Shown here: positions 1 through 48,400 of the stretch, in pieces
Layout of the letters: each line of letters starts with the position of its first letter
Position numbering within the stretch: position 1 is the stretch's first letter
DNA from: Marsupella aquatica
Taxonomy: Eukaryota; Plantae; Marchantiophyta
Assembly: GCA_973895155.1 (NCBI GenBank)
Contig: OZ316891.1
Coordinates: 23,145,884-23,209,883, forward strand
DNA length: 64,000 bases
Direction of reading: 5' to 3'
The notes under the pieces: model-generated
Seen by the model: the letters and a program-made list of their open reading frames with translations, nothing else
Database searches by the model: none
Told to the model about the DNA's origin: nothing
Made by a program: the position numbers and the translations under genes

Positions 1-3000
1 CCATGATGGATCTGCCCATTTCCCTTTGAAAAGAATCACCTCTTTCCTCAAGCTGCTATAATTCAGTACCAAGATATCTGTCAAGGCCCCTACATACTGT
101 ACAGATTCTTCTATGGTTGCACCAGACCTGTCCACTTGCTTCTCAGTGAATGTAGAAGCCATCCCAGAATCAAAAGTGCTGAAAGCACCAGAATCACAAT
201 CACTCAAACACCCCAAGGATGGAATAGTCCTCCAATGGTGCCCATAGGCTCTGCATGCCCTATACAGTCGTGCCTTCAAACTAGGTGGTGTGGAGTATGC
301 AGATAGTAATGACCGCTTAGACTCTTTCTCAAAATTATGGGTATTGACTAATGTTTGAAACCATTCCCTGAAAGGTGGCAATTCTTGGCAGTTAGCGGGA
401 AATTCCACTGGTTTTCTTTGATTGGCAGGCTTCCTCATCCATTCTTTCCGGAAATCCACTCTTTGTTTGGTAACAGTCTCATTGGTAGCATCATATATCC
501 TGCATGGCAACAACAATAGTGAAGACATTAGTACACGATCCACCATGAATATACACACACAATGGGGCAACATAATTATGATCCATATGCCGAAGGATAG
601 GAGGGTTTAGGGTTTATGTACCTGTACCATGGAGCCACTTTCTCTTCATTCTCCAATATATAATGATGCATGGCCATCATTTCAGACCAATCCAAAGTTA
701 TCGCCTTTGCAGCCCCTTCCAAAACAATGCCTGCAACGCCAGCATCCTCCTCCAACTCCCAGGTTTGTTTTCCCTCTCCCTTTGCATCAATCATGTATTC
801 AGAAAGGAATCCCAAAGACTCATCTGATACATAGCCTTCAGCCATAGAGGCCTCTGGACGTGCCTTGTTTTGTACATAACCCTTCAATACCTTCAGGTTC
901 CTCTCTATTGGGTACATCCATCTGCCTGTAACTGGGCCACACAAGTCTAATTCCTCCACTAGGTGAATCATTAAATGGGTCATGACATCAAAGAAGCTTG
1001 GTGGAAAATGGATTTCCAAAATGCAGAGAGTGAATGCAACATCCATCATCAAATTCTCATACATTGAAGGGTCCCACACCTTCGTACAGATCTGGTGATA
1101 GATATTGCTCACCCCAGCTATGACCAAGCGAACCCCTTCATCAAGTAATCCCATTGTTGCCAGAGGGAGAATCAGTTGCATGAGTTGGTGGAAATCATGT
1201 GATTTCAACCCAAAGAGTTTCTTGGATTTTGTAACACACTTCGCTAAAGAACTTGAAAAACTAGTGGGCCCTTTCAAGGTCAATAACACCTCCAAGAACC
1301 TTGTTCTTTCCTTCTTGCTCAGGCAATATGGGGTTGGGGGCATCAACAATTTGTCATCGTTACGCTTGGGAGCTGGATTGGGTACAAGCCATAGGTGTTG
1401 GCGCACCTGTAAGAGCTTCATGTCTTCTCTCACAGAAGGAGTGTCCTTGGTCCCAATGATAGTGTGCACAATGTTGTGTGCAAGATTCTTCTCACAGTGC
1501 ATGGGATCTAGACAATGGTTAATGAGTAGGTGTTGGCGCACCTGTAAGAGCTTCATGTCTTCTCTCACAGAAGGAGTGTCCTTGGTCCCAATGATAGTGT
1601 GCACAATGTTGTGTGCAAGATTCTTCTCACAGTGCATGGGATCTAGACAATGGTTAATGAGTAGTTTCTGCAGTGGACACACAATTCAGAAATCAGGGCA
1701 TTGAATACAACTTTTGGCATCACTGGGCAGTAGTTTGTGCAGTAGACACAATTCAGAAATTAGTGCATTGAATACAACAATTACAAAATCTGGGCTACAG
1801 GAAGTATATGAAGAGAATATATTTCAAAGTCATATGAAGAGATTGCAGAAATTCATTGTAGTAGTATGGAGTCTTACATTCCAATAGGGCAACTTGTACA
1901 GACCAGTAGCCCTCTTCACTCCATGCACCTTTATGGGGCAGCTCTCATCCTCAACCTTGGTTCCTCCCTTCTTCAAATATTCTGTTGTCTCGTCTCCCCA
2001 CTTCTTTCTATCAGAGCTTGTCATTCTACACGGTGCAGGTCGACTCTCAATTGCACCATCAAAGTATTGTGCATTGTCTGGTCTACGAAAAAGATGCCTT
2101 GTTGCTAACCATCGACGGTGGCCACCGTACTCTAATTTCTGCAAGTGCTTAGAACCACGTGCCACACATTTTGGCCCACAGATGACACATCCTTTGTATC
2201 CAGAGTGTTGTTGTCCAGATATTAAACCATATGCAGGGTAATCATTGATTGTCCACAATAGCACAGCCCTAAGGTTGAAGTGTTGAGACAATCCTAGGCG
2301 TGGCAATTTGTCAAAGCAGGGCACTCCTTTCTTCCACAATAGTTCCAGCTCCTCATAGAATGGGCCCAATATTATGTCCAGTTGTTCCTCTGTTACTGAA
2401 TCAGGTCCTGGAATCAGCATAGCTAGCATGACAAAGAACTTCTTGGTGGTAAGCCAAGGAGGTAAATTGTAATTCAACAACAGTATTGGCCAGGTAGACC
2501 AAGCTGTGGAATTATTCCCAAAGGGATTCACCCCATCAAGTGCCAACCCAAATCGCACATTCCTTGGTTCAGCTGCAAATTTCTTATCAATATTTGTATC
2601 CACATGCTTCCAAGCCTTGGAATCTGCTGCGTGCCGAACCATGTTGTCTGTGCTTCTATTCTCATGATGCCAAGTCATGAGTTTAGATGTACCAACAGTG
2701 GCATACAATCTCTTCAACCTGGGAATTATAGGGAAATACCGCACCACCTTCCTTGCCTGTAATGAATTCCCCACTCTCTTCATCTTGGGCTGCTGACACA
2801 CTGAACAATTTTCTAACTTGGCATTCTCACCCCTAAAGAGCATGCAACCTTTCTCACAGACAGGGATTCTCTCATAATCCATGCCAAGCTTTCTCAATAG
2901 CTGCTTTGCAGCATATAAGTTCTTGGGCAGATTATGCTCTACAGGCATACCATGCTCCCCCATCAAAGACAACAATGCATTCACTCCTTTGTTTGAGAAT

Positions 3001-3737
3001 CCATGGCCATGACAGATGTTCAGCAGAAGCAACATGAATGACACAACATCTATTTTGCTGCCTGGGAACAAAGGTTGCATTGCTGCATCTAAAGATAACT
3101 GTGCAGGATCAGTCTCCACAGGAGTTTCAGAGGTTTCAAGGGGGTTTACAGGATGGGCACCTCCTTCACTCTCAGCATCCCCAAGTACAAAATCCAAGTA
3201 AAAATGGTCCTCATCATCTAGTTCATGCTTAGGGGATTCTTCATTGGTTCTCAGCAATGTTTCTTCCAGTAGAGCCCTGATATGTTCTTCGACATCTATA
3301 GTTGGATGTTCTTGAACATCCACAGTTGGATACTCTGGAACATCTACAAATAAATGTTCTTCAACATCTACAGTTGGTTGTTGTGCACAGGATGCCTGCT
3401 GAAGGTTTGCTACCCTCAATGCCTCAGGGCCATGTTGTGACATGTAGTCAGCACCCCACTCTTCATCAGAAGAGTCCTGTCCCTCTCCCACCCACACTCG
3501 ACATGCAGGGTACTGACCATGTTTAATAAGGTGCAGTCTAGCAGTATTCCGATTAGTCCTATAATTCCCTTTGCAGTTCACACAAGGGTAGTACATCTTA
3601 TGGTCCCCACTCTTGTGGCAGGCCTTCTGTTCTTGAACCCACAAAGCATCATCACGATGTTGTACTCTAGTTGGATGGAAGAGTGGCAACTTTGGAGTTC
3701 TACCCACACCTAACGTATTCTGTGGCAATTGTGCCAT
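1..3737 (-). CDS. CACTA TnpD/Tnp2 transposase (transposase-associated Zn domain + Transposase_21 + DUF4218 + DUF4216), 3' end outside the window
   Basis: Exons 3737-1878, 1667-622 and 499-<1 with GT-AG introns. Motifs: YYPCVNCKG..HLIKHG, RNVRFGLALDG, WTINDYPAYG, CVIC, LDPMHCEKN, LKSHDFH, THLMIHL, WMYPIER, QYVGALTDILVLNY..LFKGKW. No stops seen in the visible part. Confidence 0.95.
1392..1664. repeat. Perfect 135-bp in-frame tandem duplication inside the transposase exon
   Basis: 1392-1529 is identical to 1527-1664 (3-bp TAG overlap). It duplicates the 45-aa segment LLINHCLDPMHCEKN...VRQH. Confidence 0.97.
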
Positions 3738-4337
3738 GCTAGCTTGATTGAAATTGTATTCAAATTATGATTTTCAAACTGGATCGGTGTGACATGCATA
3801 CAAAATTGGGCCTACCATCACAGTTGTACAACCGATGCCAACCACAGTCCAATTGCTCAAACCCACAGAGCCCAGTTTCTCAAATCCACTGTAGTGGGGC
3901 ACCTTCTCCTTCTTGCATACAAATAGAGCATCACATACAGTGTCATCAGAATGATACTATGAACGTAAATCTTTGTGCCTTCATCATTTCCAGAATTTGT
4001 TTGCCTACTAGGAATGTGAGCAGACAGGTCTAGAATAAGTAATGTTTGTGACACCAGTGACAAATTTACAAGTGAAGTTTAGACATCAACAATGACCCGA
4101 GTCACACTCAAAGCACATGCATGAAAATCGGAATCCTACCCTGGAAAAGATAGTAAAGTTGATTTCTCAAAATTAATTGCCTCAATCCGCAATGCACTGT
4201 CGTAGAGTGTGTATACATGAGGAGTTCATCAAACTGCATATAAATAGTCCACATGTTTTAGCACTCTGAAAATTGTTGAAGTCCACGTGAAACCATCAAA
4301 AAACTCTATCTCAAGTTTGTGTTCCATCCAGCCTCAA

Positions 4338-4998
4338 TCAAATCCAAGATATGTGGCTCCTAGCAGGAGTGCCTAGTGTAGGGTCAATGTCATGGTCAGG
4401 ACAGTAAAACATCCCCTTCTTTGGCTGCCCATGCGCTGAGTGATCCCAAATTGTTTGATCATGGGCAAATCCCCTCTGCTGGATAAATAGCAAGTAGTCC
4501 TTGTGCCATGCCTGAGGACACCTCATGCACTGAACCAAAAAGCCATTAGCCCCATCATTGGGCCCCTGTCCACAAGTAAGACAAATATGGAGTCCACATG
4601 ATGCTGTGCCAGGAACTAAACACTGCTGACAGTAAAACCGGGCATAGAGAGGGTCTGGACATTTTCTTACCTCTTCACCCATTTTTCCAGACACATGACA
4701 CTTAAAGCAAGAATGTTCCTCATTCTTGCAATCAACACAAAGCCATTCTTCCAACATGGCCATCAGCTAGGGATATAGTTGGGCATAGCCATTGCTGACC
4801 CAAAGGACAGGAAACATTCTTATGGAAATGTCGGTGGCAAGGCCCATCACAAACAATGAGATCCCCTCCCTCATCACAAATCGCACATACATGTGGACTA
4901 TTCTGGTTAATCTCAATGTCTGAGTATAAGGACAATTGAGGTGCTTGAGAGGATTCACCTCTGCAACGATTCATGGCCTTCTGCTTATTGCGAGCCAT
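4338..4998 (-). pseudogene. EDM2-like composite PHD-finger protein (PHD module only), one frameshift at about 4764
   Basis: VCAICDEGGDLIVCDGPCHRHFH, then after a frameshift WLCVDCKNEEHSCFKC..EVRKC..CGLHICLTC..VQCMRCPQAWH..MFYCPDHDIDPTLGTPARSHISW. This follows the EDM2 PHD region, including its characteristic C-terminal IYCxxHEIDxxLxTPxRDH signature. ATG at 4998 lies just after a cag acceptor. Confidence 0.85.
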
Positions 4999-7271
4999 GG
5001 TCCTGCACACTCAGACCCTACATCAGATTGTGAAACAAGAAGGAATAACAAGGTGCAGCATGTCACACAAGAATGAGGGTGCAACATAAAATATGACATG
5101 TAACCACAAGGGTGCAACATAAACCAATGTTTTATGGATGGCAAAGCATTTAGGACTGAGCAGCACAAATAACCTTGGCCTATGATTGGAAGCAATCACA
5201 AATATTGCAACCTGTATGCCTTCGCTTGCTGTACAGCAGTGCTCACTCACCCTGCCTTTTTAAAATCTGTAGGGGCAACACAGAACAAATAGCAATTGAG
5301 TTTCAGCAAAGCATTCATTTGGCTCTCAAGTTTTAAAATGGATAGAGCAAACACAACAATGTGCACAACAAAGCACAGAGAGCAACAAAATTCCAGCAAA
5401 CTGAGACTCAGGCAAGAGATACAAATTTTAGCAGCGAAATCAAATCAAGATTCGGACCTGTAAGTTCAACATGCAGTGCTCAGTCACCCTGCCCTTTTTT
5501 AAATCTGTAAAAATCAAGTTTTATTGCGTGCCTTCTACATCTTAAGCTGTTGCACACATCTGTTACAGAACCATAAGTTGCTTTACTCTCAACTAGCTGC
5601 TGGTCCACCCACTTTTTCAAAAGCTGCACCGTACTCTATCTTCGTGCAGTCGTGGCATTACCGGGCTGCTATCAGAGACCCTTATGAAGAATTTAAAATT
5701 GACCAAGCTGATTTTAGTTTAGTTTCATCCAGTTTGCAGACCAAAGGAAATCATGTGTGAACGTCAGACAATTAGTTGTAAATACCATAGTTGAAGAGCA
5801 AGGCTTGTACAAAAGCCATTGAGGAATTCTTTGAGGTGGCACTGCAGTTGGCAAACCACACACGAAACTCTGAAACTTTTTGGCAACAGAATTCTACAGA
5901 GTCGCTTCTAGAATCCAGTGAGGATTCACCATACATGCCTGCACTTCTCTTCAGTAAAAAAAAAGTTGCTGAAAGTGCCAACGGCAGGGAGACGAAAAGT
6001 GAAGAAATGAGAAGTCTTTGGCACATTGATAACCAGTATGGTCCTTGGACTTCAGATGCAAGAAAGGAAATGGAAGAGACAAAAAAATCTGTAAAAGAAA
6101 GTAGAGTGCAACAGAGATCCAACATACGCAGATTTGGACTGTGGGAACAGATTTTTGACGCAGATTTTCCAGCAAGGGTTAGCAAGTAGTCTAGTACTTA
6201 CTAGTACTTACATTGTTCGATCGCAGCTCACTCATTCAGAGGAAAACAAATCCTCAAATTAATGCTCTACATTGCCTTTTTCCTCATGCATGGATAGAGC
6301 CAATGTCTATTGACAATCTTTTACAATTGTTATGAAGCAAAGTACTTGCTAGACGGCCTGGTCACTCATACTGAGCAAAACAATGAATGAACTTACCCCA
6401 CAACAGAGCACATAGCTACTCACTATGACATCAATATCACCATTCTTATTTTGTCAAAGATAAGGAAATTATCTTAGGGCTTGAATTTTTAAGTAGAAGA
6501 GGAAGTGCACTTTAGGGTGTCCGAAAATTCTCCGATGTGTTTGTCAGTAAAGTCCACAGTACCACAAATTGCCACAACTTATGGTTGCCGTTGAGCAAAG
6601 ATTACTAGTTGGATGGATTGTGATAATGGTGATGGCCCCACCCTCATGGCTGCCAATTGCTACGTTCAGGCATGGATGAGACCGAGAGTAGCAATAGTAG
6701 TCATGTTTCACACAGACGAACAGCTGAATTGAGATATGAGGAAACGATCTTGGTGCTGAGGGGCAGAGAATAACAAACAAAAAATGCACTCGTAGGGATC
6801 CGCAACAAATGAATTGTGCAATCAAAACGGAATATCAATCAAACATATATGAAACCCTCAGTCTACGCTTAGCCAGCACTTTCATCCAGAGAGTGTGCTT
6901 TTCACCATTCAAATCAAATTCCGCAAACTATAACAGACAAGCACAGTAAGTTGGCAATTGACAGACCAAGCATAGTGCCCTGAAACAGACTACAAATCAA
7001 CAATAGAACTCACTCTGCATTCCTCCCAACAGCCCTAGATTATTGTGAGTAGACTGGAACGGGATTTTTATTGGTGTTCAACATAAGAAATCTGTCTCTA
7101 GATGTGGACGCTCTAGAGGCTCTAGAAGAGAAAATTCAGTGTCACAGAATGAAACGCGGTGGCATTAGCATGCAGCAGAACAAATCTCTTTGTGGGAAAT
7201 GAGAAGCTTGACTCCCAATTAAAGTCCCAAAAAGACAAGAAGCTCACTCTACGAATGGAGATGGAGGGGAA

Positions 7272-7541
7272 CTCGTCCTCCGCTTGCAGCTCAGCCTCCG
7301 CTCGTCCTCCGCTTGCAGCCCAAGCTCGTCCTCCGCTCACAGCTCAGCGTCCAATCGTCCTCCGCTCACAGCTCAGCCTCCGCTCGTCCTCCGCTCGCGG
7401 CCTGAGCTCGTCCTCCACTCTCCGCTCGTCCTCCGCTTGCAGCTCGTCCTCTACTTGCAGGTCAGCCCTCCGCTCGTCCTCCGCTCGCAGCCCAAGCTCG
7501 TCCTCCGCTCATCCTCCGCTCTCCGCTCGTCCTCCGCTCCT
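7272..7541. repeat. GC-rich degenerate minisatellite (core CTCGTCCTCCG)
   Basis: More than 10 interspersed copies of ctcgtcctccg with gcttgcag/ctcagc spacers. Confidence 0.85.
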
Positions 7542-8989
7542 CACCCACAACTTGGAGGAAATGTAAAGAAGCTATTGCAATGCCAATCGATCGAAGCTCC
7601 TGGAAACATGTAGCGCCTAAGTCCTACCGAGGTGCTCCGTCAAACGCGCGCAACACACTCAAAAACAATGGCAGCCTGAATGGCTTCGGGTTGGAGCTCC
7701 TCCTCTAAAGCTTGCAAATGGTCAATAGTTTAGGGTCCAGGTCCAAGGCTTCACTGAAACAATGCCTCGCCCAATGCTTGCCCGATGTTACGCAGCGCAG
7801 TGATAAAGTCCCAAGAGCACTTAAACTTTGTGCAACCCTAAAGGTGAGAGCACTCCGCGCGGAAACTGATATGTGCACACCAAGAAACCACGACATTCAA
7901 CGTAGCAGATCGATGGTTTTTGGGAAAAGGGGCCCTTGCGCGAATGGTGAACACTTGTGCTGGAAACATGTCGCCCGCTAAACCCGGTCATGTTTACCGT
8001 TGGATGGGCTTAAAAGACACACACAATAGGGTAATTCACTTACCCTAAAACTCCTAAAAATGTCCTGACCCCCATAAGGCCACAATACCCTAAAACCCTA
8101 AAACCCTAAATGACTCTACACCCCCATCTAAACTTTAACTCAAGGGAAGCCCACCTCCCACCCATAGGCAGCCCCGGGCCAAATAAGGTAATTTCTGGTG
8201 ATTTCTTATAGGAGTCCTCCCATATCATACCACAATGACATTATATAAGGTCCTGATAATTAAAAAGAGAACCCCCATATTCCAAAATGTTTATGCCCCA
8301 CTAGTGCATGGAGAATAGTATGTAGAGTGTCATGCAACCCTCCTTAAATATCGTACCCCTAAATGACCCGATGTATGACTTCGGTCTAAAACAACCACTA
8401 GTTGCAGTCATTAGATCTAAATTTTTGTCATTGCCAAAGACGCACCATTTTGTTCATGTCACGATCAACTATTACCCCTACTCTAAAATTGGCCTGGCAA
8501 TAATCACACATCGATCAAAACGTGTTAATAATTTGTGTGAACTCTCTTATTTAAGGAAAATAGTGAAGTTTATTATAGTATTGAATGATATGGTATACCA
8601 TGTATGTACTATTTTGATTAGCACTTTTGGGGCCCCAAAAAATTTGGGTCCAAGGAATTACACATTCAGATGTGATAATATGTGATATACTATGTCATTT
8701 TTTAATTCATGACAACCCCAATGACTGCACAAGGGACCACGTAAATGACCAAATGTCCAATAATTTGTCTTATATGACACTTAATATGACCATTTCAATG
8801 ACACTATTTGTAGTCAAAATTGGTTTTTATGACACAACATTTGAATTATATGACATGCAAAATGACGGCGCCAATGACCCTCACTTCAGTCATTGGCATT
8901 AATGAATACCCTTAATCCAAAATGACCCAATGAAATTATGCTCCTCTTGTAGTGCCCAAAGTTCCATAATGCCTTCCCTAGACGCAAAA

Positions 8990-11915
8990 ACATGTCTGAA
9001 CATTTATTATGCTACAACTAGTGGTGGAATAGAAAGTATTGTATCCCCCACCTCGTGGAACGGTGGTGAGCTCTATGTGGGACCGCGTGGCACCCATTCT
9101 TACATTCAGCCCCTAGCCCCAAACTTGTCATTTGTGCTTCTGTTTAATGATTGCACAAGGGACCACACAAATGACCACAAGTCTAGTCCTTAGACTTATA
9201 TGACATCTCATATGACAGTTTTAATGACCCTTCTTGTAGTCATTGGCATTTATGACGGTCCGTTGGTCACATATGACCCAATGAAGGCCCTAGTACCTCC
9301 AAAGAGAGCCCCCAATAGATTCCTTGCAAGGTTGGAATATTCCTCTTTCCTAAACCCGCACCCACACCATACAGGGAAGCACGACTCCTTGCCCATTCCA
9401 TTGGTGCAACACCACCTCTTGGAGAACCACAAAACAACTTTTATTTGCCTTTTGGATGTGATGGTGTGCATGCATGGTAACACTTTTGGCAAATCACTCC
9501 AAAGTCGTACAACTTGGGAGTGATTTCCCCAAAGGTGCATCATGCCTTAAGTAAATGCAAAAACATGTGTCCAAAGTGTTTATGTCGCAACTAGTGGTTG
9601 GACAATGATGAGTATGGTGTCCTGCACCTAGTGGAGGGGTTCTCACCTCTATGTGGGGCCACATGGCACTCTAGGGCCCACCTCCAGCCCCTAGCCCCAG
9701 ACTGGTCATTTGTGCTTTTCCTTAATGACTGCACAAGGGACCCCTCAAATGACCACAACTGCAGTCATTAGACTTATATGACTGCCCATATGACAGTTTT
9801 AATGACCCTACTTGTAGTCACTGGCATTTATGACGGTCCATTGGTCACATATGACCCAATGAAGGCCCTAGTACCTCCAAAGAGAGCCCCCAATAGATTC
9901 CTTGCAAGGTTGGAATATTCCTCTTCCCTAAACCCGGACCCACACCATAGAGAGAAGCATGACTCCCCTGCCCATTCCATTGGTGCAGCACTACCTCTTG
10001 GAGAACCCAAAAATAACTTTTATTTGTCTTTGGATGTGATGGTATGCATCCATGGTGACACTTTTGGCAAATCACTCCAAAGTTGTATGACTTGGAAGTG
10101 ATTTCCCCAAAGGTGCATCGTGCCTTAAGTAAACACAAAAACATGTGTCCAAAGTGTTTATGTTGCAACTAGTGGTTGGACAATGATGAGTATAGTGTCC
10201 CGCACCTAGTGGAGGGGTTCTCACCTCTATGTGGGGCCCCATGGCACTCTAGGGCCCACCTCCAGCCCCTAGCCCCAAAATGGTCATTGTGCTTTTCCTT
10301 AATGACTGCATGGGGGACCCCTCAAATGACAATAATTCATGTCATTCCGCTTATATGACATCCACTGTGACATTTTTAATGACCTTTCTTGTAGTCATTG
10401 GCATTTATGACGGGCCATTGCTCACATATGACCCAATAAAGGCCCTAGTACCTCCAACTAGAGTCAATTTTAGATTCCTTGCAAGGTTGGAATATTCCTA
10501 TACCCTAAACCCGCACCCACACCATAGAGAGAAGCATGACTCCCCTGCCCATTCCATTGGTGCAGCACTACCTCTTGGAGAACCCAAAAAACAGATTTTA
10601 TTTGCCTTTGGATGTGATGGTATACATCCATGGTTGCACTTTTGGCAAATCACTCCAAAGTTGTACGACTTGGGAGTGATTTCCCCAAAGGTGCATCATG
10701 CCTTAAGTAAATGCAAAAACATGTGTCCAAAGTGTTTATGTCGCAACTAGTGGTTGGACAATGATGAGTATAGTGTCTCGCACCCAGTGGAGGGGTTCGC
10801 ACCTCTATGTGGGGCCCCATGGCACTCTAGGGCCCACCTCAAGCCCCTAGCCCCAAACTGGTCATTTATGCTTTTCCTTTTAATGATTGCATAAGGGACC
10901 CCTCAAATGACCACAAATGCAATCATTAGACTGATATGACTCTCCATATGACAGTTTTAATGACCCTACTTTTAGTCATTGGCATTTATGACGGGCCATT
11001 GCTCACATATGACCCAATAAAGGCCCTAGTACCTCAGCTAGAGCCAGCTTTAGATTCCTTCCAAGATTGGAATATTCCTATACCCTAATCCCGCACCCAC
11101 ACCATACTGAGAAGCACGACTCCTCTGCCCATTCCATTGGTGCAGCACTACCTCTTGGAGAACCAAAAAACAACTTTTATTTGCCTTTGGATGTGATGGT
11201 ATGCATGCATGGTGACACTTTTGGCAAATCACTCCAAAGCGCAAAAACATGTGTCCAAAGTGTTATTGTCGCAACTAGTGGTTGGACAATGATGAGTATA
11301 GTGTCCCGCACCTAGTGGAGGGGTTTTCACCTCTATGTGGGGCCCCATGGCACTCTAGGGCACACCTCAAGCCCCCAACCCCAAACTGGTCATTTGTGCT
11401 TGTGTTTAATGACTGCATGAGGGACCACACAAATGACCACAAGTCCAGTCACTTGACTTATATGACAGTCCATATGACAAATTTAATGACCCTACTTGTA
11501 GTCATTGGTATTTGTGATGCAAATGTTTTTAGAAATGACCCAATAAAGATTACACTAGCTCCTTGAATGCCCCATCACTATTTATTTGCAAATTAAAATA
11601 TTCCCCGTCCAAACATCGGCACAAACATGACACAATTGCAACAAAGGATGACAACCTTCCATTGGTATTGCCCTACTTCTTGGAGAGACAAAAAGGTTTT
11701 ATTTGCCTTTGGATACGGTAGTATGCGCGCATGTATATATGGTGACACTTCTGGAAAATCTCTCCAAAGGTGTATGACTTGGGAGTGATTTCCCCAAAGC
11801 TAGGTGCATCATGCCTAAAGTAAATGCAAGACATGTGTTCAAATTGCTAATGCCCCAACCAGTGGGAGGACAATGATGAGTATTGTGTCCCGCACTTAGT
11901 GGAAGGGTTATCAAC
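8990..11915. repeat. Tandem array of about 578-bp units (about 5 copies), each with an internal ~45-bp palindrome
   Basis: The anchor (gac)ttatatgac recurs at about 9193, 9771, 10350, 10930 and 11455, and near-identical pseudo-ORFs start at 9200 and 9778. The fourth unit has a ~50-bp deletion at about 11240. Confidence 0.92.
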
Positions 11916-11996
11916 TATACCAATGACTCTACAATTATGACCGGTGTCTGGAATGACTATTGAGTATTTTAATCTTCATATCTCTTGGGTTCTTTA

Positions 11997-12432
11997 ATGA
12001 CTCTATAAGTAGTCATTTATGCAATAAGTCCATAATGACTGTATGTTATTGTAAACATTGATATATCATGATTTTTAGATTGACCCTATATTTAGTCATT
12101 TATGCAACAAGTCCATAATGACACTATGTTGTTGTAAACACCGATATATCCTAATTTCAAGTTTGACTCTAGAGTTAGTCATTTATGAGAGAAGTCCATA
12201 ATGATGATATGTTTTTGTAAACACTGATATGTCCTAATTTCAAGATTGACCCTAGAGTTAGTCATTTATGAGAGAAGTCCATAATGACGGTATATTCTTG
12301 TAAACACTGATATGTCCTAATTTCAAAATTGACCCTAGAGTTAGTCATTTATGGGAGAAGTCCATAATGACAATATGTTGTTGTAAACATTGATATATTC
12401 TCATTTTCAGATTGACCCTATATTTTGTCATT
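11997..12432. repeat. 83-bp tandem repeat, about 5 copies (CACTA subterminal region)
   Basis: agtcatttat recurs at 12011, 12094, 12177, 12260 and 12343 (degenerate at 12426). Confidence 0.92.
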
Positions 12433-12805
12433 TAACACCGTTGGTTAAAATGACGGTAATACATTTTTTGTCATTTATCACCATTGTCCAAAATGACCCA
12501 AATAGATTTTTGGTCATTTCAATCATTGTCCAGAGTGACTATAATGTTGTTAAACACTGATTTATCATTGTTGTTATTAATTGCGTCATTTAAGACATGT
12601 GTCTAAATTGACCATTTAGGGAAATTGGGTCATTTTGGTCACATCAGTCATTACATACATTATACAAAATGACGCAAAAGTTAACATTTTGTCATTTCAG
12701 TCCATTGGTCATTGTGGACAGTCATTCCCCTGTCATTCTTTTTGTGTCAATACAAATTTTGGTCATTTATTCATCTCCGTCATTGGGTGATTGGTCATAA
12801 ATGGC

Positions 12806-12822
12806 CCTGTTTTCTTCTAGTG
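12806..12822 (-). repeat. CACTA terminal inverted repeat (right end of element A)
   Basis: cctgttttcttctagtg; the same 17 bp occur at 50392-50408. Confidence 0.85.
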
Positions 12823-15329
12823 ATGGAAGTACATGTGAGTGAAACGGGTAGAACAATAATAGAAAGACTCTATAAGTGATGATGATAACTAAACATGAAA
12901 ATGGTGGTATGTGGTTTCAAACATACCTTCTGACATGCCAACTACAGAAGTATATTGGGATGTTAGGAAACACTGCTTGTAAGGCACTAACTTCAGCCTG
13001 AGCGCAGTAGATGATGAAACAACTTGGACTCCAATCCGGTTTGGTCAACAAGGCTCTGTCTCTCACAGCTTGTAAAAATGACCCAATATGTTCTGCTGAC
13101 TCTGACTATTGTATACACCACGCTATGGGTAGTCCCATTTGGTGTTCATCAAATGCAACAAGAGTAAAGAAAGGAAACTGCCATCATAACAAATATAATT
13201 AAGGTTACATGCTAGAACAATAATGTCAGTCAATACAAAAATAAACCAAAACAGTAATGTCATTCAACACAAAAATCAACCATAACGGTAATTCAAACAC
13301 ACGATAACATCACAAAAATGAATAAAACATAATGTAGGAAAGGGACCAAGAGAATTGACCCCATATTTGTTAATTGCAAATGTGGAGTCCGGGGCCAAGA
13401 CCGACCCATGAGACAACTTTGTCATTTGAGCAAGCTGCCAAGGTGATTGGAGTCCAAGCATGAACTCCTGCTTTGGAGGTCCCTCCAAGTACTCATGGGA
13501 AAGAAAAACTCTTTCAAGGTAAAGGCATTTCCATTTCTGCATTGAGGCTTGGTCATTGTCATCCCATAACCACAACTCTTTGTCAATTTTCCTCTTCAGG
13601 TTTTGCAGGTCCTGTTTTGACAAAAGGTCGTCTCTACCGTCAAAGTTTAGTGTGACTTCCATGTCAGTGACATTATGGCCACGATCATCACCATCCCTCT
13701 CAAATTGTGACTGGCAATGTAGGTCATATATGTCAAGGACAGACCACTTTGCCCTGAACAAGTCTTCTAGGTGTTTTTGCAACTCGTTGGTCAGCCATGG
13801 AGCAACACTACACTTTGGCCCCCATGTTGGCGGCCCCATTTCATGCTCCCAAGAACCATGCACTATGTCGCCTCTGAGGTTGCAATGGATTCTGCAACTA
13901 GAACAGTAATAACCACACACAGTTTCAGTGATGTTTGGTGACAGAACAATAACAACATCACATAGTTTCAGTGAAGTTTGATGCCAGAACACACACTATA
14001 TCGCAAATAACTTACTATGATGTGAAGAGTACATGGTGGCAGAACAATAAGGAAAACTCAAACTGGAACGCAAAAATAGAGTCATAGAAGTTCATTTTGA
14101 GTCAGAAGGTAGTCTGTACCTATTACTATAGGTGATTTGAACAACGTCAGGGATCATCTTGAATCTCTTTGCAATGAAGTGGCATTGACAATTCCTTTTT
14201 GCCTGATTGTTGAAGTTCTTTTTGCATAGATGTGGCCTGCTCCCAATTCCTGACTTTGGATGTGTTCCTTGGAGAGGAGGAACACATAGATTGACGTTGT
14301 CTTCTTGCGGGCCATAAGAACACCAGAATATCTTATACTCTACCCAATCTGTGTTCTCAGAATCTGATTTCTTTGAAGTCCTAGTGTAAAAAGATGTCTC
14401 AAATTTAGGATCTCTTTTGCCCTCCCCATCCCTAAAGTCTGTCAGGCGTTCCCAAGGAATGACAGCTTGATTAAGAGTCCAAACAAGTGACAATGCGGAG
14501 AACTTCCTAGGAGGTGGGTCCTAAATCACACCCCCTGTCATGTCCATTGCAACTAGGGTATGTCACATCCAATAACTGTGTGGGACTGGTAGAACGACTA
14601 CACAAACACCATTGTTCTAACACGGTTTACATGGAAAGAGATGACGGAGGCAATCTGTCCCACGATCAATGCTCCTCAATAGTGATAGGGTCCACACATG
14701 CAAAAAGTGCACTGCAACGTTGCCAGTAACCTGATCTTGATCTTCTCTTGCTTGGGGCAGAGGTGCCAAGTACAGAACGTTGAACACTACTGAGGTTCTT
14801 AGTGAAACAAATTAGAACCTAATACGAAAGACATTGTTAACATAATCCGTGGTGAAGAAAAAGTAAAAACATATATGCACCGTGGAAAAACACAATCTTA
14901 ACTGAAAAGGCCAAATCGCATTTGATAGCGCGCGTGGGAGACAAGAAACAAGAGCTCAAGACACACTGCAAACTTCGGGCAGAACGCTCGCGCGCGCTAG
15001 AAAATGATATGACGACAGAACGCACAACGCTGCACATCGAGTATTTCCAGCAACGGGACCACAATGATAACAACTGAGAATGAGAACATGTGACAAAAAC
15101 AGAGGGGGACTGGAGGCCGGGTAAGCGTGTCCCGCGCCCTAAAGGCCGTGAAATTTGAAATGGACGGAAATTTTCCGTCTGACGCCAATCGGGGCTAATA
15201 CGTTTCAAGTGCGCCAGAACGGTGATTGACGGACGCGCGGGCTTGCGGGCAGTAGCATTGGGATTAGTGACGGGCGGGAACGGGGCCCCAAGAAAGCTGG
15301 GGAGCTTTAATGCGGTGTTGATTTAACCC
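12823..15329 (-). mobile_element. Mutator-like element (MULE), interrupted by CACTA element A
   Basis: Transposase pseudogene at 12927-14493, followed by a GC-rich region ending ...gatttaaccc at 15329 (GGGTTAAATC on the minus strand), a plausible MULE terminus. The partner end is not in the window. Confidence 0.55.
12927..14493 (-). pseudogene. MULE transposase of the plant SWIM/zinc-binding (At4g13970/At1g60560-like) family
   Basis: Exons about 14493-14120, 13891-13360 and 13177-12927. Motifs: AVIPWERLTDF..EYKIFWCSYGP..KRNCQCHFIAKR, RDDLLSKQD, DSTFAINKYG|FPFFTLVAFDEHQMGLPIAW, FCSWHVRR. There is an in-frame TAG in exon 3, and the second catalytic Asp reads Tyr (FIIYCAQAE). Confidence 0.88.
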
Positions 15330-36400: not shown

Positions 36401-36961
36401 TTTAAGTCAAGTTACCAGCCAACACTGATGAATTCACCATTCGTTCCAGTAGTTTTGTGTTTCAGACATACAGCAAGGCAACGACCTTTTAAACGACAAC
36501 GTGTCCAACTTCAGCTTTTGACTCATTTCCATCCTCTTGTTACATCAACAACTTGGATGCTGATTTTCTCCTGGAAAAATGCATAGCTCTGTCGACCGCG
36601 AGTTCAGGGATTAAGCTAACAATCATATGGCTCCCATGTACGTCACCGTGATGGCTTTTCGAGAAGCGGCTGAGCTTCACAACGTTAATTTCCCTAGGCG
36701 ACATTCATTTGAAGTTTATGGGACAGATTAGGGTTCAGGCCTCAACATAGAAACTGGCCATTGAAGACGACACAAAAGCCAATTACGACCAGTGCCATCG
36801 ATCCGCGATATATAGAAACTTGTAAACTGAAATATGATTGGATGAGAATATTGCACAATCCAAAGAAGTGCTCCTTGAACCCACTCTAACTTCTACACAC
36901 ATAGAATGTAGAACAACGTCTACTGTTAGATTAACAGTTATATAGAGTTGCATATATGTAC

Positions 36962-39900
36962 CTATGCAACTCCCTCCACTGAGACATCTCTGGGCGATTT
37001 CCCAACACATAATTGTGGATCTGTAGGCGAAGTATGTTGTCATGTAGTGAACGCTTTTTTGATGCACCCATCAAACGCAACCCACCATTGTCATCATCTT
37101 GTGCCTCTTCCCAAGCTGTGGGAGCTTCTGTGTCCAAACTCCCTATCATCCCTCCGGAATAAAAGAGGCACTCCGACATGATATACCCCGTTGCCATACT
37201 TCCCTCTGGTCGAGCTGGTTGACGCACCATGGACTTGAGCACTTTCATGAAGCGCTCTACCCAATACATCCAACGTGCATGGACAGGACCAGCAATCGCG
37301 ACCTCATCCACCAAGTGACATAGTAAATGCAATTGCATGTCAAATATGCATGGGGGAAACACCTTCTCCATATTGCACATCACGCGAGCTGACCTCTCTC
37401 TCATCAAAGGAATCTCAGACTCCTTTATCTCCTTAGCGCATACCCACCTATGTTCCTCCTCAAAACCATCAAAGATTTTGTATATCAGATCCACATAGGG
37501 CCATAGAAAAATGAGTTTGAAATACTTGTTGAATTACATGGCTCCTTCAGCGGTAACAAGAACTTGCAAGAGAGCAATGGAAGAGAGGGTACGTTATCAT
37601 ACCTAAAAATGGAGCACATCTCATATATAGTCAGACGGAGTAAACGACGCTCCCGGGAATCATCACAACAACGCAAGACTGCTGGTAGCACATGCTGTAT
37701 CAACTTGTGATAATCATGAGACTTCAACCCTATTGGGGGTATGTGATCATTCCTTGTAGTGCACCCACAAAAACCAGCTCCGTAATGGCTAGGGAACTTC
37801 ATCTCGCTTATCATCCCATTCATGTCCTTCAAAACCTCTCTTGGCAAAATCCAAGGACCAGGAGGTTTCTCCCCAGTACGTGTTATCCAACAACTCTTCA
37901 CTACTCCAACCCTCTCAGCATCCTCTCGGACTCCACGAGTGTCATTCGTCCCATAAATGTGCTTCACCAAGTTCTTAGCAACATTCACTTCAATGTGCAT
38001 GGGGTCCAACAACCATCGAACCTGGAGTCTCTGGAAATTGAAATAACATATTGAATCAATTGCAATCTCTAAATTAAGAATTTTATTGGTCTAATTTGCT
38101 GTAAAGGAACCATGCACTTCTATCACTTACCCTCCAATAAGGCAAGTCCCACATAGCTGAGCGTCGGTTTACTCCACAATCCTTGGGTTTTAGTAACTTT
38201 GCTTCCACCTTCTCTGCCATTTGAATTTGTCCTTCAGCTGAAGGGCCATTAGGACATGGCCGCACTTCAGTCTCTGCCCAATGTGTTGTGTTTTGTCGCA
38301 AGTGGTCATCCATTGCCAACCGGACCCTACTGCCCTCATATGTGGTTTTGTGCAGTAGTCTTGAGTACCTCCCACGCAACTCTGGGCCACATGAAGGGCA
38401 AGCTGAAAAACCTGCCACCTTCAGGCCAGATATTGTCCCCATACCTGCCATTTCATTGAACCATGTTCAGACCACAAATAACCCCAACACTTGCATTGTA
38501 CATGACATTGTGCAAACAATAGTCATTGGGTTGCCCAATGAATTACCTGGACCATCTGTGGTGCAATGAGTGATCATCACCCTCATATTGAAGGTCCTAC
38601 CATTGCCTGCTTCACGAGTGACATCTGTTGTCACTGCTCCAACCTCCCATAGATTATGTAGCTCTTCATAAGCTGGAGCCAAACAGATATCAGGATTCTT
38701 ACAGGCCTTGGGTCCAGGAATTATAGCTAATAGAAGCACATGACCCTTCTTCATTGCCAACCATGGAGGGATGTTTTTATTTATCAAAAGAACAGGCCAG
38801 ATGGACTTAGGCTTCCGTCGTTGTTTATATGGGTTCACTCCATCGATTGCCAACCCCAAACGAACATTTCTTGGCTCCTGGGCAAAATTTGGCCAAGTGG
38901 CATCAATGTGCTTCCACGCTGGACTATCTTGGTGGTATTGCATTATCCCTGGTGGGGATTTGTTCTCCACATGCCAAGTCTGTAGTGTGGATAAGTGCTT
39001 TCGTCGGTAGAGATGCTGAAGTCGGGGAGTGATTGGGAAATAACGAAAAACCTGCCAGATCCAATGTAACATCGTCAATTTGACGACAATCACAATAAAC
39101 GTCCTTCCACACTACGTATTATTAAAACTAACATCGTAAAGGACGACGTTTCATACCCTAATGTACCATGCGACGTTAGTTACTGCATCCCATACGACGT
39201 AAAAACAAAAAAATGTCAGGTGGAAAGACATAAAGTGAGATGGACGACGTAAAGTAATCAATTACATAGTCATGTACGACGTTGTTTGAAAGAATGCAAC
39301 GTTAAAAGTTGGACTTTCTTGTTCTCACATTGCGTTGAGGAAAACATTACCTTTTCTGCAATCTTGTCTCCAATGGTGTCTGGTCGATACCATGGAAGCC
39401 TACAGTGCTCCTCTAGGCAGTGAGTGTGATCCTTGTACACCCCTCTATACAAGATGCACCCACCTGGGCACATGTGGATAGTCTCTAAAGCCAATCCAAT
39501 TGAGGCTAACAACTTCTTAGCCTCCCTCACACATCCAGGGAGAGTGTTTGGTTGGGGCAAGAGTTTGCCGTGGAACAATTGGAAGAGTGCATCTGTATGG
39601 ACATCCGAACCATTGAAAACTCCTTGCAAATTCAACATCAACAAAGTTGCACCCAACCTGGATTTGCAAAACCACAAACACCAGACTTTTTGCAGTTAGT
39701 CCAAGTAGCTAGATGGCATGCCTGGCACTACAATTTAGACTGCCCAATATTCACTGGATGAAATTCCAGAGTTGTGATAATTTTAGGACAACCTTACCGT
39801 GAGGATGGAGATCCCTCAAATAGTGGTGTTCTGGCTTCAGTCTCCAAGTGATCCCAATCTTCTTGATCCACTTCCATGATAGGGTGCTCGGCGTCAGGTG

Positions 39901-42124
39901 CATGAGGTCCAAAGTGAACGTCAACAAGGTGGGCAAATGCATCTTCTTCAAGGACAGGGTCATCTCCCTCATCTCCCTCATCTCCCTCATCGTCAACATC
40001 ATCATCCAACTCTCCATCATCATCCAACTCTCCATCATATGCATCATGGTACTCCTCATCCTCATCGTCCATCTCATCATGGTCAAGGGGCTGACCCTCA
40101 GCATCCTCCTCGTCTGAGAAATGTAAGGTGGCACGTACGTGAAAGGCACGGGCTGATGTAGTCATCATTGATGGGTGAGGTGTGGGAGTAATATGTACAC
40201 CATCCTAGAGTTTTCAATATGCAATGACAAATAACAATTAGAGAAAGGGTTTATGTGATAAAGCTTACAGTGAAACATCAATAATGAAAAATGCAAGGGT
40301 CACCCCATAATGAATATGTCATGTACACATGTAAACATCAATGCCAATCATAATCTACGAGAATCTCTTCCCCTGCTCTAATGGTGCGGGTAGCATGTGT
40401 CAAGATGTAATGCGTGCATGCTACAGGCAAACGAGGGTGACTCTGGTCATGGACTCGGGGGGATCAGTATATGAAGGGTCATACATCACGTGCGACGGTT
40501 TGGGTCATTTATGACCCCCCTAAGTCACTTTCTAGAAAGTTGTACGACACCAATCATGTGATGACACGTATGCATTTTGCAATTAAACAACCCTATATTT
40601 CCATAGAAGACTTAATAAGTCTTCCGCCAAAACCATTTAAATGGCCCTATACTTCGTCGCACATGATATGCCACTTCCATGGAAGTGACCCCCTCGAGGT
40701 CATGGAACTCGTGCCACTCAGCATTTGGCCTAAACCCTGAACGCCGAGAACCAATAGTGCTATTGATGTAACCCGCCAAGTTCCCCGTGCAAGGTGGGTA
40801 ACCATCAATTGAGCATACCTAGGGTCCAACTTTAGTGACATGCCATATCGACTAAAGGTTGGGCACTGTCGGGACAAGATGCGCCATCTTGCCGCCGAAT
40901 ACTTGGGCCCATAGAATGGAAACAACTGAGGCAAATCATCGGGTGCACAACCGGTAGGGACCACGATATCCACAAGAGCAAATACTCCAAGTCCTACATG
41001 AGTCCCCAATGTGGAGGGGAGGATGACCCATGGGCGGTCCCAAACTATAATAGGCTCCCGAAGCGGGAGGTCCATAGGGAGTCCAAACTGGGCTGGGAAG
41101 GAGTCCTTTAAGATGTCCAAGGCTCTCCCTCGCAACTGTCTCGGTGCCCGGGACACGGATGCATCAAGCAAAGGGCATTGGGGCGGAACAATCCTAGGTG
41201 GACGGGACTCAATCGATCGGGGTCTAGTGGTCACCACTACTCCCCTCTCAATAGGGTGCATCCTAAACACTCTCCTCCTCCTCCGAAATACACGGTCTAT
41301 CTCCCTCAATGTGGCTGGCAAATCGGATGGATGGACGAGTGGTGCGAGTGCACGATATGCAATGTCTCTCAAGCGGTCCACAGGCGAAGATCGCACTACA
41401 ACAGGAATCTGTTCCACATGTTCACCAAAACAAGTTCAGAATATGACAATCAAAAAACAATTCAAGGAAGGAGATGTTATCATAATTGCAATACCCAACA
41501 AAATTGTATTACCTCTCGGGTCGGGGGGGTGTAACGACCATGGATCCCTAAATGGCTAAGGACAGTGGTCCTCTCGTGTAAGACAACACCCTTGCATCGT
41601 CTGCAAGGGCAAGGCATCTTGCAAATTGGCCCAATCCCCTGAAGAGCAGCCATGGCCTCTCCAAATCCATCAGCATGATGGGGGCTCCGGCCTCTCCTAC
41701 CGTCGGAACCATGTCTGCATCGACGACGCCTGGATCGGTGACGCCTAGATCGATCATACATGTCTGGTGAGTAATCTCTCTCCCGGTCCGATAGGTCGTC
41801 CCTCCCCCTATGATGATGGTCATCTCTGCGTCGGGTGTAAGTACCCCCACCATGGTCCTCATAGGATGAGTCATCCCTCCTCCTCCCTCCCTCGTCATCC
41901 CTCCTCCTCTGCCGCTCATCATTGCTCCTATAGCCCGATGAAGCTGAACTCCCCTTATGCCGATGATGGTGTCTATGTTGGTGAGAACTACCGCCATGCT
42001 CATTGTCATCGTCACACGAGTCATCCCTTTGCCTATCCGACTCATCATACGTCCCCCTATGATGATGATGGTATCTGTGCCGATGATGCCTGCCCCCATC
42101 ATGGTCCAATGCATAGGTTGCCAT
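36962..42124 (-). CDS. CACTA TnpD transposase no. 1 (transposase-associated domain + Transposase_21 + DUF4218); C-terminal DUF4216 exon not found
   Basis: Predicted exons 42124-41513, 40204-39798, 39657-39351, 39051-38547, 38444-38131, 38030-37603 and 37447-36962, all GT-AG and in frame. Motifs: CPCRRCKG..VLSHLGIHG, RNVRLGLAIDG, CTTDGPG, CPSC, LDPMHIE, LKSHDYH, LHLLCHL, WMYWVER. Confidence 0.85.
40338..41408 (-). pseudogene. SET-domain (protein lysine methyltransferase-like) exon nested in the first intron of TnpD no. 1; one frameshift plus a MITE insertion
   Basis: VILPSTLGTHVGLGVFALVDI..LFPFYGPKY..YGMSL, then a frameshift at about 40812, IDGYPPCTGNLAGYINS..PNAEWHEFHD, the MITE, and QSHPRLPVACTHYILTHATRTIRAGEEILVDYDWH* (stop 40338-40340). 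The GxG, YxG, YIN and EExxxDY SET motifs are all present. Confidence 0.88.
40454..40698. mobile_element. 245-bp non-autonomous TIR element (MITE) with an 8-bp TSD
   Basis: TSD gtcatgga at 40446-40453 and 40699-40706. TIRs ctcggggggatca and tgaccccctcgag. Removing it restores the SET reading frame. Confidence 0.9.
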
Positions 42125-42539
42125 GTCCCCTGTGATCAAATTTACAAAGGCCCCCACAACATATTAAACCCCAAGCATAAACGTATCCCGCTACGTTAAC
42201 CAAACTAACGTCCATCCACACGACGTTCCCCTAAACTTAACGTCGTTTTTTAGGTTGTGGGGAGGTTGCCGAATTTAGTTTACGTAATAATGTACGACGT
42301 ACTTAATAAGTTAACGTCGTTAGGTATGACGTAATTATATGTAACGTCGCCGCTAAACCCTACACTCCTGGTTAACGTTGTGATTAATGACGTTAAATTA
42401 GGGTAACGGCGGGTCTCCAAGGTTTGTGGGCTACGGCTGTTTTCCTTTAACAAAACATCGGGAAGTGACTTGAATGTGACTCACATTCAACATTCAACAC
42501 TTCCCCTCTCCCCCTCTCGACCTCCTATCTTAACAGTGA

Positions 42540-45499: not shown

Positions 45500-48400
45500 G
45501 TGTCAAGTGACAGTGGAAGCAACAACCCTGATCGCAATCTACCTAGAACATATGAACAGGTTATTGATGACCAAGATAGAGCCATGGATGATTTTATGGT
45601 TGATTGGTTTGGTGTTGATGTCCCTGGTGATGACGCTGAGGTGTCTGCTGATCAAGGAGGTCATGTGCCCCCCAATGATCCATGACCAAGACATACCCCC
45701 AAGGGACAGCGCCAATGGGAGGAAGCAGAGGAACATGCCCGAACTCCTATCTATGAGGGTGCTCGTTTGAGTCATCTTTCTGCTATCTTGGGGTTGATGA
45801 ATCTACAGGCCAAACACAAGGCAAGCAATGCCTTGTTATCTGATATGTTTGCACTTTGCCATGACCTTATGTTACCTTCTGGCAATGTGTTGCCAGGAAC
45901 TTGGAAGGAGGCCAAGCGTGTTCTCTCATCAATTGGCATGGAATATCATATCATTCATGCATGTGTGAATGATTGCATGTTATTTCATGGGGCCGATGAG
46001 AAGAAGACATAGTGTACTGAATGTCATGAGCCACGGTATGACCCCAACATGATTACAAAGAAGGTGCCAAGAAAAGCTGTTCGTTGGTTTCCCATCATTC
46101 CTCGGTTGTTGCACATGTACAGGTGTTCTGATTTGGCAGAGTTGATGGTATGGCATAAGACTCATCGATCAGAGCCTGGTGTTATGCGGTTGCCAATTGA
46201 CTCTCCTGCAGTCAAACATATTGAGGAAACATGGCCAGACTTTGCACATGATCCTCGTCATGTGAGGTTGGGATTGGCATCTGATGGGGTTAGTCCTCAT
46301 GCCCTTGGAGGCAAGGGAAGACCTACATCAGTTTGGCCTGTGGTTGTTATGAATTACAACCTTCCACCATGGCTATCCATGAAGAAGGGGTTCCTCTTGC
46401 TGTCTTTGATTATTCCAGGTCCAAAAAAGGTGAAGAACTTTGACACTTATTTGGCACTATTGATTGGAGAACTCCAAAAACTGTGGGGTGGAGTGTGGGC
46501 ATATGATGGCAGGAAAAATACATGAGGCATTCCACGTGTATTTAAATTGAGAGGGGTAGTTTGTTGGACAATGCATGACTATCCTGGTAAGATGACTTTT
46601 TGACCATATGCCACCCTTCTTTGATATGCTCTTTAATATACTTGTTTGTCATGTGACAACCCTAACATTTAGTCTGGTTTTATTTTTGGTGTAACCAGGG
46701 TTTGGCTTTGTCTCTGGATTGCAAACTCAGGGGTACAAAGCTTGCTCCACCTGTGGTCCACAATTGCAAGATATGGCAATTTGGTCCCCATGGCTTAGGA
46801 AGATTGTTTACATTGGGCATACAAAGTTTCTTCCGATGGGGCATGAGATGAGGTCTGACCCACTTTTATTTTCCTCCTTTGACATGCCCCTTGGTGATAT
46901 GCGGGAAATTCCGGAACCAACAACTTTTGGGCATTGGAAGTCACTAGCTGATAGGGTGGCAGACCCTGATGATCCCCTCACCTTTGATGGTACTGGGTTG
47001 ACGAGGTGGAGTATACTAGCCAGTTTGCCCTATTGGTCAGAGTTGAAGATCCGCCATCTTTTAGACCCCATGCACATAGAGGGAAATGTGGGGAAGGCGT
47101 TGATAGCTCATTTTTTATGGGGAGAAGGACACTAACTTCAGGGAGGCATGTGAAGAGTTGGAAATGCATCCAGATGTATGGGTACAAGTTGATCCTGCCA
47201 CAGGTTTGGAACATCGTCCTTCTACTCCTTGGGTGCTTAGTGTTGGCCAAAGACGTGAATTCCGGAATCGTATAGGGGAGATGCGGTTTCCTACAGGCTA
47301 TGGTGCCAATTTGAGGAAAGCTTTTGGGATGGAGGACAATCACAAATGGCCACGGTATCTCAAGACACATGACTATCACCGCTTATTGCAGCATATATTG
47401 CCAGTGGCAATTATAGGGTTGGGGACCAAAGAAGTGCAAGATGCCATTTGGTCATTGGGTCGTTTGTTGAGATGGATATGCTCAAAGGAGATATATGTGG
47501 AAGAGATTCCTAGAATGGAGGTATTGGCTGCTGAGGTGGTTTGCAAGTTGGAGAAGGCCCTCCCTCCTTCCTTCTTTGATTGTCAGGTTCATTTACTTGT
47601 GCATCTTGTGAGGGAGGTTGCCATTGCTGGTCCAGTTCATTGTCGATGGATGTACTGGCTTGAGCGTTACATGTCAGTCTTGAAGGCTTATGTACGTAAT
47701 CGTGCACGAGTGGAGGGAAGCATAGCTACAGGATACTTGGCTGCAGAGAGCATGTTTTATTGTAGTAACATCTTGGCCACCATTGATCGGACTTTACCAC
47801 GTACTTGGATGGAGGAGAGGCAAGAGGAGGAGGACCGTTTAACAGGAGCAACAAAAACATGCATGCTTACATCAACAGAGTGGACACAGTTGAATACATT
47901 CATGTTGAGTAATAGCAATGTCATGGATGAATGGAGGGAGTTTTATGACAATGCCAAAAGAATGAGTCAAAGGGCAAGGATTTTTCCTAAGTTGCATGAG
48001 TTTATGAAGGAAAAGTTGGTTGAGTTGGATTGCATTTTGGCACAAGGAGGAGATGTCTCACAGTTTCCTACTATGACAAATGACATTCGGACCATTGTTC
48101 ATGGCCCTTTGAGAGTGGTAACATCCAAGACGGCCATGTGGACCCAAGGGAGACACTTCAGGTTTCACTAGTTCCTAACCTTGTTTTCCATATTGATGTA
48201 CTACTACTTAAGATATAGTAATCATTTTACTTAAGATAAGTGTGTTTTTCTCTTTTGGTATGAAAGGTTCCTCATAACATGATTAGTGTTTTTTGTGTAG
48301 TAGTAACAATATATGGGTCTTGTTAATTTCAGGATTTCTTCCCTTGATGAGAAGAGGCTCGTACTTTTGATTGTGGAGTTCAAGGGCAGTTTTGTCAGGA

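Follow-up and report, generated by a model that had tools for sequence, protein, structure and literature searches.

EDM2 is defined by atypical plant homeodomain (PHD) repeats with His-ended fingers (PMC3776765, PMC7529245; see also PMC5364540). Precedents for anti-silencing factors encoded by transposons are VANC, of VANDAL elements, whose likely origin is the capture of a host chromatin protein (PMC13547354), and TnpA, of Spm/CACTA elements, a protein with tandem helix-turn-helix (HTH) motifs reported to be restricted to flowering plants (Spm preprint); transposon accessory proteins, capture and silencing are also treated in 10.64898/2026.08.24.746577 and 10.1101/2024.09.22.614159. Mimics of the histone H3 N-terminus have been described as well, among them the human H3TMs VRK1, BCL11 and SALL, influenza NS1 and G9a. 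Their published definition is the start iM-Z-R-X-K, found in only 48 of the roughly 21,000 human proteins (PMC8166343). Here we describe a gene from a 64,000-nucleotide window of the liverwort Marsupella aquatica (contig OZ316891.1, positions 23,145,884 to 23,209,883; all coordinates below are those of this window), an intronless, stand-alone triple-PHD gene at 4998-4338 on the minus strand, next to the transposase gene TnpD of a CACTA element, whose product opens with an H3-like N-terminus. The evidence that this gene is a functional accessory of its CACTA family is much stronger than that for any single mechanism proposed for it.

Read across one break, the PHD gene has 219 codons, from an ATG at 4998 (context GACCATGG, with an AG 5 nt before it and an in-frame stop 5 codons upstream) to its own stop at 4340-4338. 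Its two pieces matched the Pfam families PHD-1st_NSD (E 2.8e-6), PHD_NSD (2.5e-4) and PHDvar_NSD (1.7e-5), and two of four candidates, with 225 and 216 aa, proved to be intact homologues that align over its full length, with 77-82% and 70% identity to the window protein, respectively. An earlier reading made from the letters alone (the original prediction) had proposed a composite, intronless PHD module of about 220 aa, located 600 bp upstream of the transposase on the same strand; Pfam and the end-to-end alignment confirmed the module, and the distance to the TnpD ATG at 3737 was measured as 601 bp. The frameshift and the two Cys-to-Tyr changes that it listed are also real, the latter being private to this copy and at zinc-ligand columns. 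In the dominant form, read from the region 4300-5030 in four runs out of four studies, the single surplus base near 4749 that shifts the frame is missing (4/4 runs), and Cys stands in all four runs at both Tyr sites, i.e., the PHD2 ligand at 4645 and the PHD3 ligand at 4495, each a C-to-T change in CHG context. Nine of the 12 changes private to the window copy (counting 4627, which is not fixed in two runs) are C-to-T, and for seven of the nine the context is CG or CHG (22% expected, p=6e-4), an excess that points to a copy that was methylated and is decaying. The feature at 4338..4998, as delimited by Pfam, by tblastn with the family proteins P0001 and P0002, and by the runs, is thus a pseudogenised copy of the accessory gene.

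The element around it has the CACTA/En-Spm hallmarks, namely a TnpD with Transposase_21 (E 4e-66) and DUF4218 (E 3e-35) and, at the 5' end, a terminus with subterminal repeats. This terminus, CACTAGAAGAAAACAGG (12806..12822, minus strand), is identical in all 17 nt to a further CACTA end, located at 50408; ATGAC/GTCAT motifs reach 31 per kb beside it, against 1-4 per kb in the five non-terminal intervals counted, and depth drops beyond 12822. The placement of the gene inside the CACTA terminus, as the original prediction had it, therefore holds for this one end, the opposite end (beyond base 1) and the target-site duplication lying outside the 64-kb window. Contig depth, a relative measure and not a copy number, was high in two stretches, 1-5400 and 9000-12822, whereas the interval 5850-9000 and the last bin (13051-13500) were shallow (four runs, two studies). 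Across the four runs, the depth of the PHD bins was 0.62, 0.74, 0.95 and 0.74 of that of the TnpD bins, and 7, 15, 139 and 37 times that of the flank bin. The runs were retrieved using window positions 3000-6000, yet positions 1-3000 are equally deep, and a 1204-bp contig with a depth of 701 covers the entire PHD gene with its frame open. Judged by its transposase-like depth, the PHD gene is a regular part of this CACTA family in three organisms; the CACTA link is demonstrated for the family of the window element only.

The gene is also under purifying selection and intact in the dominant copies. Counting variants with a share of 20% or more, 31 were listed, 19 silent and 12 replacement (21% silent expected), and the 15 that separate lineages comprise 10 silent and 5 replacement changes (pN/pS 0.13, p=1.4e-4; p=0.008 under a transitions-only null). 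Replacement and silent changes do not differ in proportion between the private (6:6) and between-lineage (5:10) sets (Fisher p=0.45), so that relaxed selection in the window copy rests on the frameshift and the ligand losses. Its multi-copy nature, purifying selection and an identity of 30-39% all speak against a single-copy, neutrally decaying capture nearly identical to EDM2, and for the window family the transposase-like depth in the runs speaks against a gene with no CACTA linkage elsewhere.

Contrary to the original prediction, the PHD protein does not appear to be an EDM2 module, and its sequence places it in a long-stemmed clade of its own. The best of 107 matches in a representative search were short stand-alone proteins, which ranked above all EDM2s, one repeat protein excepted, and a profile search over 168 candidates yielded 17 proteins, of which 12 were new. 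All 19 stand-alone rows formed one clade (support 100/99, stem 1.03) in a 60-row tree that left out 29 further EDM2-like cassettes and the rows without a start motif; relative to NSD, this clade falls with the EDM2-like sequences of plants and algae (98/89), outside the 25-row EDM2 group (91/87). Approximately unbiased (AU) tests rejected none of three donor groupings, with p of 0.39 for a liverwort sister, 0.145 for a union with EDM2 and 0.056 for the third. Family members are 30-39% (about 34%) identical to 55 EDM2-like cassettes. The His ligand of PHD2 is replaced by Cys in 22 of 23 members (Tyr in the remaining one), the PHD2 ligand spacing is 11-12 residues against mostly 30-34, with about 20 residues lost, and the acidic stretch before PHD1 is gone: there is no Asp or Glu in the eight residues before Cys1 in 19/19 members, against a mean of 3.0 in the 55 EDM2s, a conserved Glu at -9 (17/18) lying just beyond this span. 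Therefore, the H3K9me2 specificity of EDM2, which the original prediction had extended to this protein, is not transferable to it.

What remains of the likeness to EDM2 and EDM2-like proteins, such as Marchantia Mp2g00350 and Selaginella EDM2, is the same atypical triple-PHD cassette with His-ended C-terminal fingers (ligand columns conserved, Pfam matched) and the plant C-terminal extension TPxRxH, whose His221 is found in 20/20 stand-alone and 55/55 EDM2 proteins; the PHD protein can be seen as a minimal version of this cassette. As the original prediction correctly stated, the other EDM2 domains are lacking: family proteins have 112-245 aa and end where the cassette ends, without RFD, the ELP methyltransferase-like domain, the acidic domains or the proline-rich C-terminus. 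Pfam searches of P0001 and P0002 matched PHD families only, with no SET, AWS or PWWP domain, and neither Pfam, the PDB sequence search nor the structure model revealed a sequence-specific DNA-binding domain of the tandem HTH or VANC type. Longer fused forms of P0001 were found in 0 of the 65 candidates scored, which is weak evidence. NSD2 and NSD3, which by sequence are the best relatives with a solved structure (profile E 1.7e-24), share the short PHD2, but they differ from the family in having SET, PWWP and AWS domains, and the family groups with the EDM2-like proteins of plants and algae and carries the plant tail motif.

The closest named host relatives come from liverworts. EDM2-like paralogues of this group (Mp1g03210 and Mp4g03050, and those of Riccia and Calypogeia) have the highest host identity to the family (35-41%), share V161, W170 and H192 with it, and mostly stop soon after the cassette; unlike the family, most have long N-terminal regions, an acidic DDPP before PHD1, and the His ligand and long form of PHD2. 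Residue sharing and identity thus favour them as putative donors, although the AU tests reject no grouping. Outside the family clade, short EDM2-derived PHD proteins also occur (P0032, P0094 and the P0105 cluster), among them a Triticeae group of stand-alone EDM2-like PHD proteins annotated as host genes. Zinc-ligand lesions affect 14 of 543 family positions and 1 of 1516 host positions, with changes to Tyr numbering 9 and 0, a comparison biased by the use of unfiltered gene calls for the family and curated annotation for the host. Two metagenome scans confirmed 0 of 435 and 3 of 55 stretches, and the three loci are intronless, each with a stop or frameshift; together with the ligand lesions, they would fit decaying repeat copies.

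The feature that the original prediction overlooked is the N-terminus, in which codons 2-10 (A-R-N-K-Q-K-A-M-N; 4969..4995, minus strand) resemble the H3 tail and keep the equivalents of A1, R2, K4, Q5 and A7. The start iM-Z-R-X-K is shared by the window protein, 4 of the 20 listed family proteins and L003, and identities to the first ten H3 residues number seven for P0001 and five for the window protein. Residues 1-4 and 7-10 of the H3 template used in this comparison appear in PMC8166343. Among 23 family tails, 20 were long enough for scoring, and [AS]RxK occurs in 16 of them (0.97 expected), while the longer [AS]RxKxx[AS] occurs in 14, against 0.14 expected from shuffles and 0/90 host proteins. 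Nine tails reach p<0.05 individually, and the true H3 order outscores shuffled templates (p=0.001). Two tests that avoid circularity agree with this: with RxK alone held fixed, p was 2e-4 over the nine of 12 lineage representatives that have it, and when positions 5-10 only were shuffled, these matched H3 in register with p=5e-5; A7 is found in 7/9 of these representatives and K/R9 in 8/9. A PDB search with just the 30-aa tail gave no match (E cut-off 10), which is unsurprising for a motif of 10 residues. With the described mimics, the family has in common the iM-Z-R-X-K start and a disordered tail; it differs from them in a match that extends to A7 and a basic residue at 8/9, in its fusion to a PHD reader of its own, and in being transposon-borne.

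On the host side, the short EDM2-clade proteins P0032 and P0094 begin with ARxK and 15 of 90 host rows begin with MAR, which leaves both inheritance and convergence as possible origins of the first residues. MAR(T/V/A) starts without K4 were seen in the EDM2-like proteins P0012, P0013, P0015, P0042, P0051, P0060, P0061 and P0074, from liverworts, Selaginella and other lineages. Several EDM2-like proteins of non-seed plants thus start with MAR, but none has the K4 of the family tail.

The structure model, built from a 30-row alignment (pLDDT 83, pTM 0.78; a single-sequence fold, with pLDDT 37, was unusable), leaves residues 1-29 disordered (pLDDT <50). The nearest solved sequences were NSD2/NSD3 and AIRE PHD1, and no plant entry for an EDM2-type PHD cassette was listed in the PDB sequence searches. 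Foldseek gave partial PHD and PZP matches only (TM 0.2-0.3), and the best VIA-align match, to NSD2 PHDvC5HCH, was weak (Z 5.3, rmsd 2.6, 75 aligned); neither indicates a ligand, and the NSD-like PHD clusters of the Atlas (<0.9) are a lead only. In AIRE, D312 contacts H3R2 and D297 contacts H3K4 (PMC2261226); by sequence alignment, the Asp equivalent to D312 is kept in 19 of 20 members (AIRE numbering as in our alignment). Binding of the cassette to the H3 tail is plausible, and an EDM2-like specificity is not assured.

We favour the reading, at a probability of roughly 0.45, that this CACTA accessory protein acts as an H3 decoy tethered to chromatin and so dampens the silencing of the element by its host. 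The start Met would be removed to expose a free Ala1 as in H3, the PHD cassette, with its R2-pocket Asp, would bind nucleosome tails, and the mimic tail would occupy host H3-tail readers or writers, so that the element stays expressed. Possible targets are the MSI1/RbAp48-type pockets of PRC2 or histone deacetylase (HDAC) complexes and the H3K4/K9 methylation enzymes. The cassette itself may have originated in an old capture of an intronless EDM2-like gene copy, possibly of a liverwort paralogue. A wider form of this reading, which we hold a little more tentatively, is that a histone-mimicry effector is carried by an old and widespread plant CACTA lineage: a counterfeit H3 tail joined to a triple-PHD reader, which docks on chromatin, diverts H3-tail readers and writers, and would fill the role of TnpA where TnpA is lacking. 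This would amount to an anti-silencing strategy like that of viruses, as yet undescribed for transposons. A chromatin and anti-silencing role, as in the original prediction, remains the best guess; what the conserved H3-like N-terminus changes is its likely mechanism.

A number of observations weigh against the decoy. Given that the motif was seen by eye before any test and that the tails share a common descent, the p-values suggest more independence than there is. It is missing in four of the 20 tails (P0002, P0007, P0119 and P0125, some of whose starts may be miscalled) and lies at the exact N-terminus in only six, being further in for 10, and the subfamily of the window copy has lost the K9 equivalent. 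In the cassette, the counterpart of the K4-binding AIRE D297 is His in 17/20, and the related PHD tandem of NSD1 binds a protein partner instead of histones (PMC4838375). No single contig joins PHD and TnpD, the longest (3897-5101) ending 160 bp before TnpD, and the three distant loci, at 1.1-1.9 kb too short for neighbours, are without a transposase: in tblastx against the window they match the PHD gene alone, and Pfam on their flanking frames gave 0/6.

Other explanations share part of this evidence. The tail could fold into its own PHD1 until a host modification or nucleosomal H3 opens it, and the protein would then guide the TnpD transpososome to chosen chromatin, much as the RAG2 PHD guides RAG1 to chromatin. 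A distance of about 30-40 residues between tail and PHD1 in the model, bridged by a flexible linker, the conserved R2-pocket Asp (19/20), and the position of the gene just upstream of TnpD in the same orientation, with both ATGs after AG acceptor-like sites, are compatible with such a self-gated targeting factor, and a PHD finger is known from Rehavkus transposases (PMC6446971). Nevertheless, residues 1-29 are unplaced in the model (pLDDT about 41) and not docked, and the free Ala1 that PHD pockets usually need is lacking in 10 of the 16 motif-bearing members, so we consider this explanation possible but rather unlikely. It is improbable that the protein reads H3K9me2 in the manner of EDM2, shielding the mark or recruiting ASI1/AIPP1 for full-length transcripts, with the basic tail serving as a nuclear localisation signal only. 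EDM2 does bind H3K9me2 and promote full-length transcripts (PMC7529245), including that of the COPIA4 element (PMC3632883), the TnpD gene contains introns, and the cassette is of the EDM2 type up to its TPxRxH extension; against this stand the separate clade at about 34% identity, the vanished acidic stretch and the remodelled PHD2, and a localisation signal would not predict the H3 residue order at positions 5-10.

An unmethylated mimic tail might instead recruit a host repressor complex, limiting transposition and damage to the host. Unmodified human H3 N-terminal mimics bind and recruit NuRD (PMC8166343), and EDM2 represses some elements, e.g., Mu1 (PMC3632883), but the family reaches a high depth in some of the runs, which (depth, again, not being copy number) does not point to strong restraint, and we regard self-restraint as still less probable. 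Very unlikely, and for the family of the window element largely refuted, is a neutral Pack-CACTA passenger, that is, a piece of host DNA that was captured and multiplied along with the element without any function. CACTA elements do capture host DNA (PMC13317346), the window copy is broken, ligand lesions are present in 9 of the 23 family proteins, and stand-alone EDM2-like PHD genes are annotated in Triticeae as host genes; however, silent changes are in excess, frames stay open across 32-68% identity with derived residues clade-wide, and no close host donor appeared among the 107 matches.

Were the decoy reading true, the element would be working through the host histone machinery, by means of a histone mimic that brings its own reader, a route unlike that of the DNA-recognising VANC and TnpA. 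Their genes, like the PHD gene, are accessories beside a transposase, but VANC and TnpA are sequence-specific DNA-binding regulators, whereas the PHD protein, with no recognised DNA-binding domain, would act via histone-type contacts. It would also have a bearing on CACTA persistence in non-flowering plants, which reportedly lack TnpA-like proteins (Spm preprint). An accessory protein of this kind, PHD reader with H3 tail, has apparently been undescribed so far. Our literature searches found no precedent for an H3 mimic with an extended match, its own PHD reader and a transposon origin, nor did their listings show a CACTA element with a PHD gene, histone mimicry by a transposon or EDM2-like genes of bryophytes, although Repbase, subscription journals and the supplements of the Spm preprint could contain an earlier account; the main text of that preprint, which surveys 962 Repbase structures, does not contain the term PHD. 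With about 220 aa and a confident predicted fold, the protein is directly testable.

Within the element, Pfam places the first coding exon of TnpD (Transpos_assoc, Transposase_21) at 1830..3737 and a second open frame (DUF4218) at 576..1685, and a stop-free frame at 1..519 that continues past the window edge is a probable third exon, all three on the minus strand. The second frame contains an exact, in-frame 135-bp duplication at 1392-1664, either a recent event or an assembly artefact. Upstream of the PHD gene, a segment of low depth (5850..8954, minus strand) represents a nested insertion or a copy-specific 5' region; it holds a GC-rich (CpG-rich) repeat at 7272-7539 and an end-like motif of its own, CACTACAAG, at 8954, and since its depth in the runs is flank-like, the insertion may be shared among them. 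A subterminal tandem array of 83 bp (5.1 copies) lies at 12010..12434, and another, with a period of about 578 bp, at 9003..11919. The latter consists of subterminal-like units within the 5' end of the element, has very high depth in 4/4 runs, and may be a satellite that arose within a CACTA element.

The window contains two further CACTA transposase genes, at 36931-42163 (minus strand) and 46013-50408 (plus strand), the latter ending in the 17-nt terminus of the PHD element; tblastn found no PHD gene in either. In a 262-aa frame of the former (40650-41435, minus strand), visual inspection suggested a motif resembling the beginning of a SET domain, a reading that we rejected for want of support from Pfam, PDB and the Atlas. 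Long frames at 50924-54950 (minus strand) and 56006-59765 (plus strand) gave no confident Pfam match, and those at 50924-54950 carry Cys/His motifs that, by eye, are suggestive of another DNA transposon.
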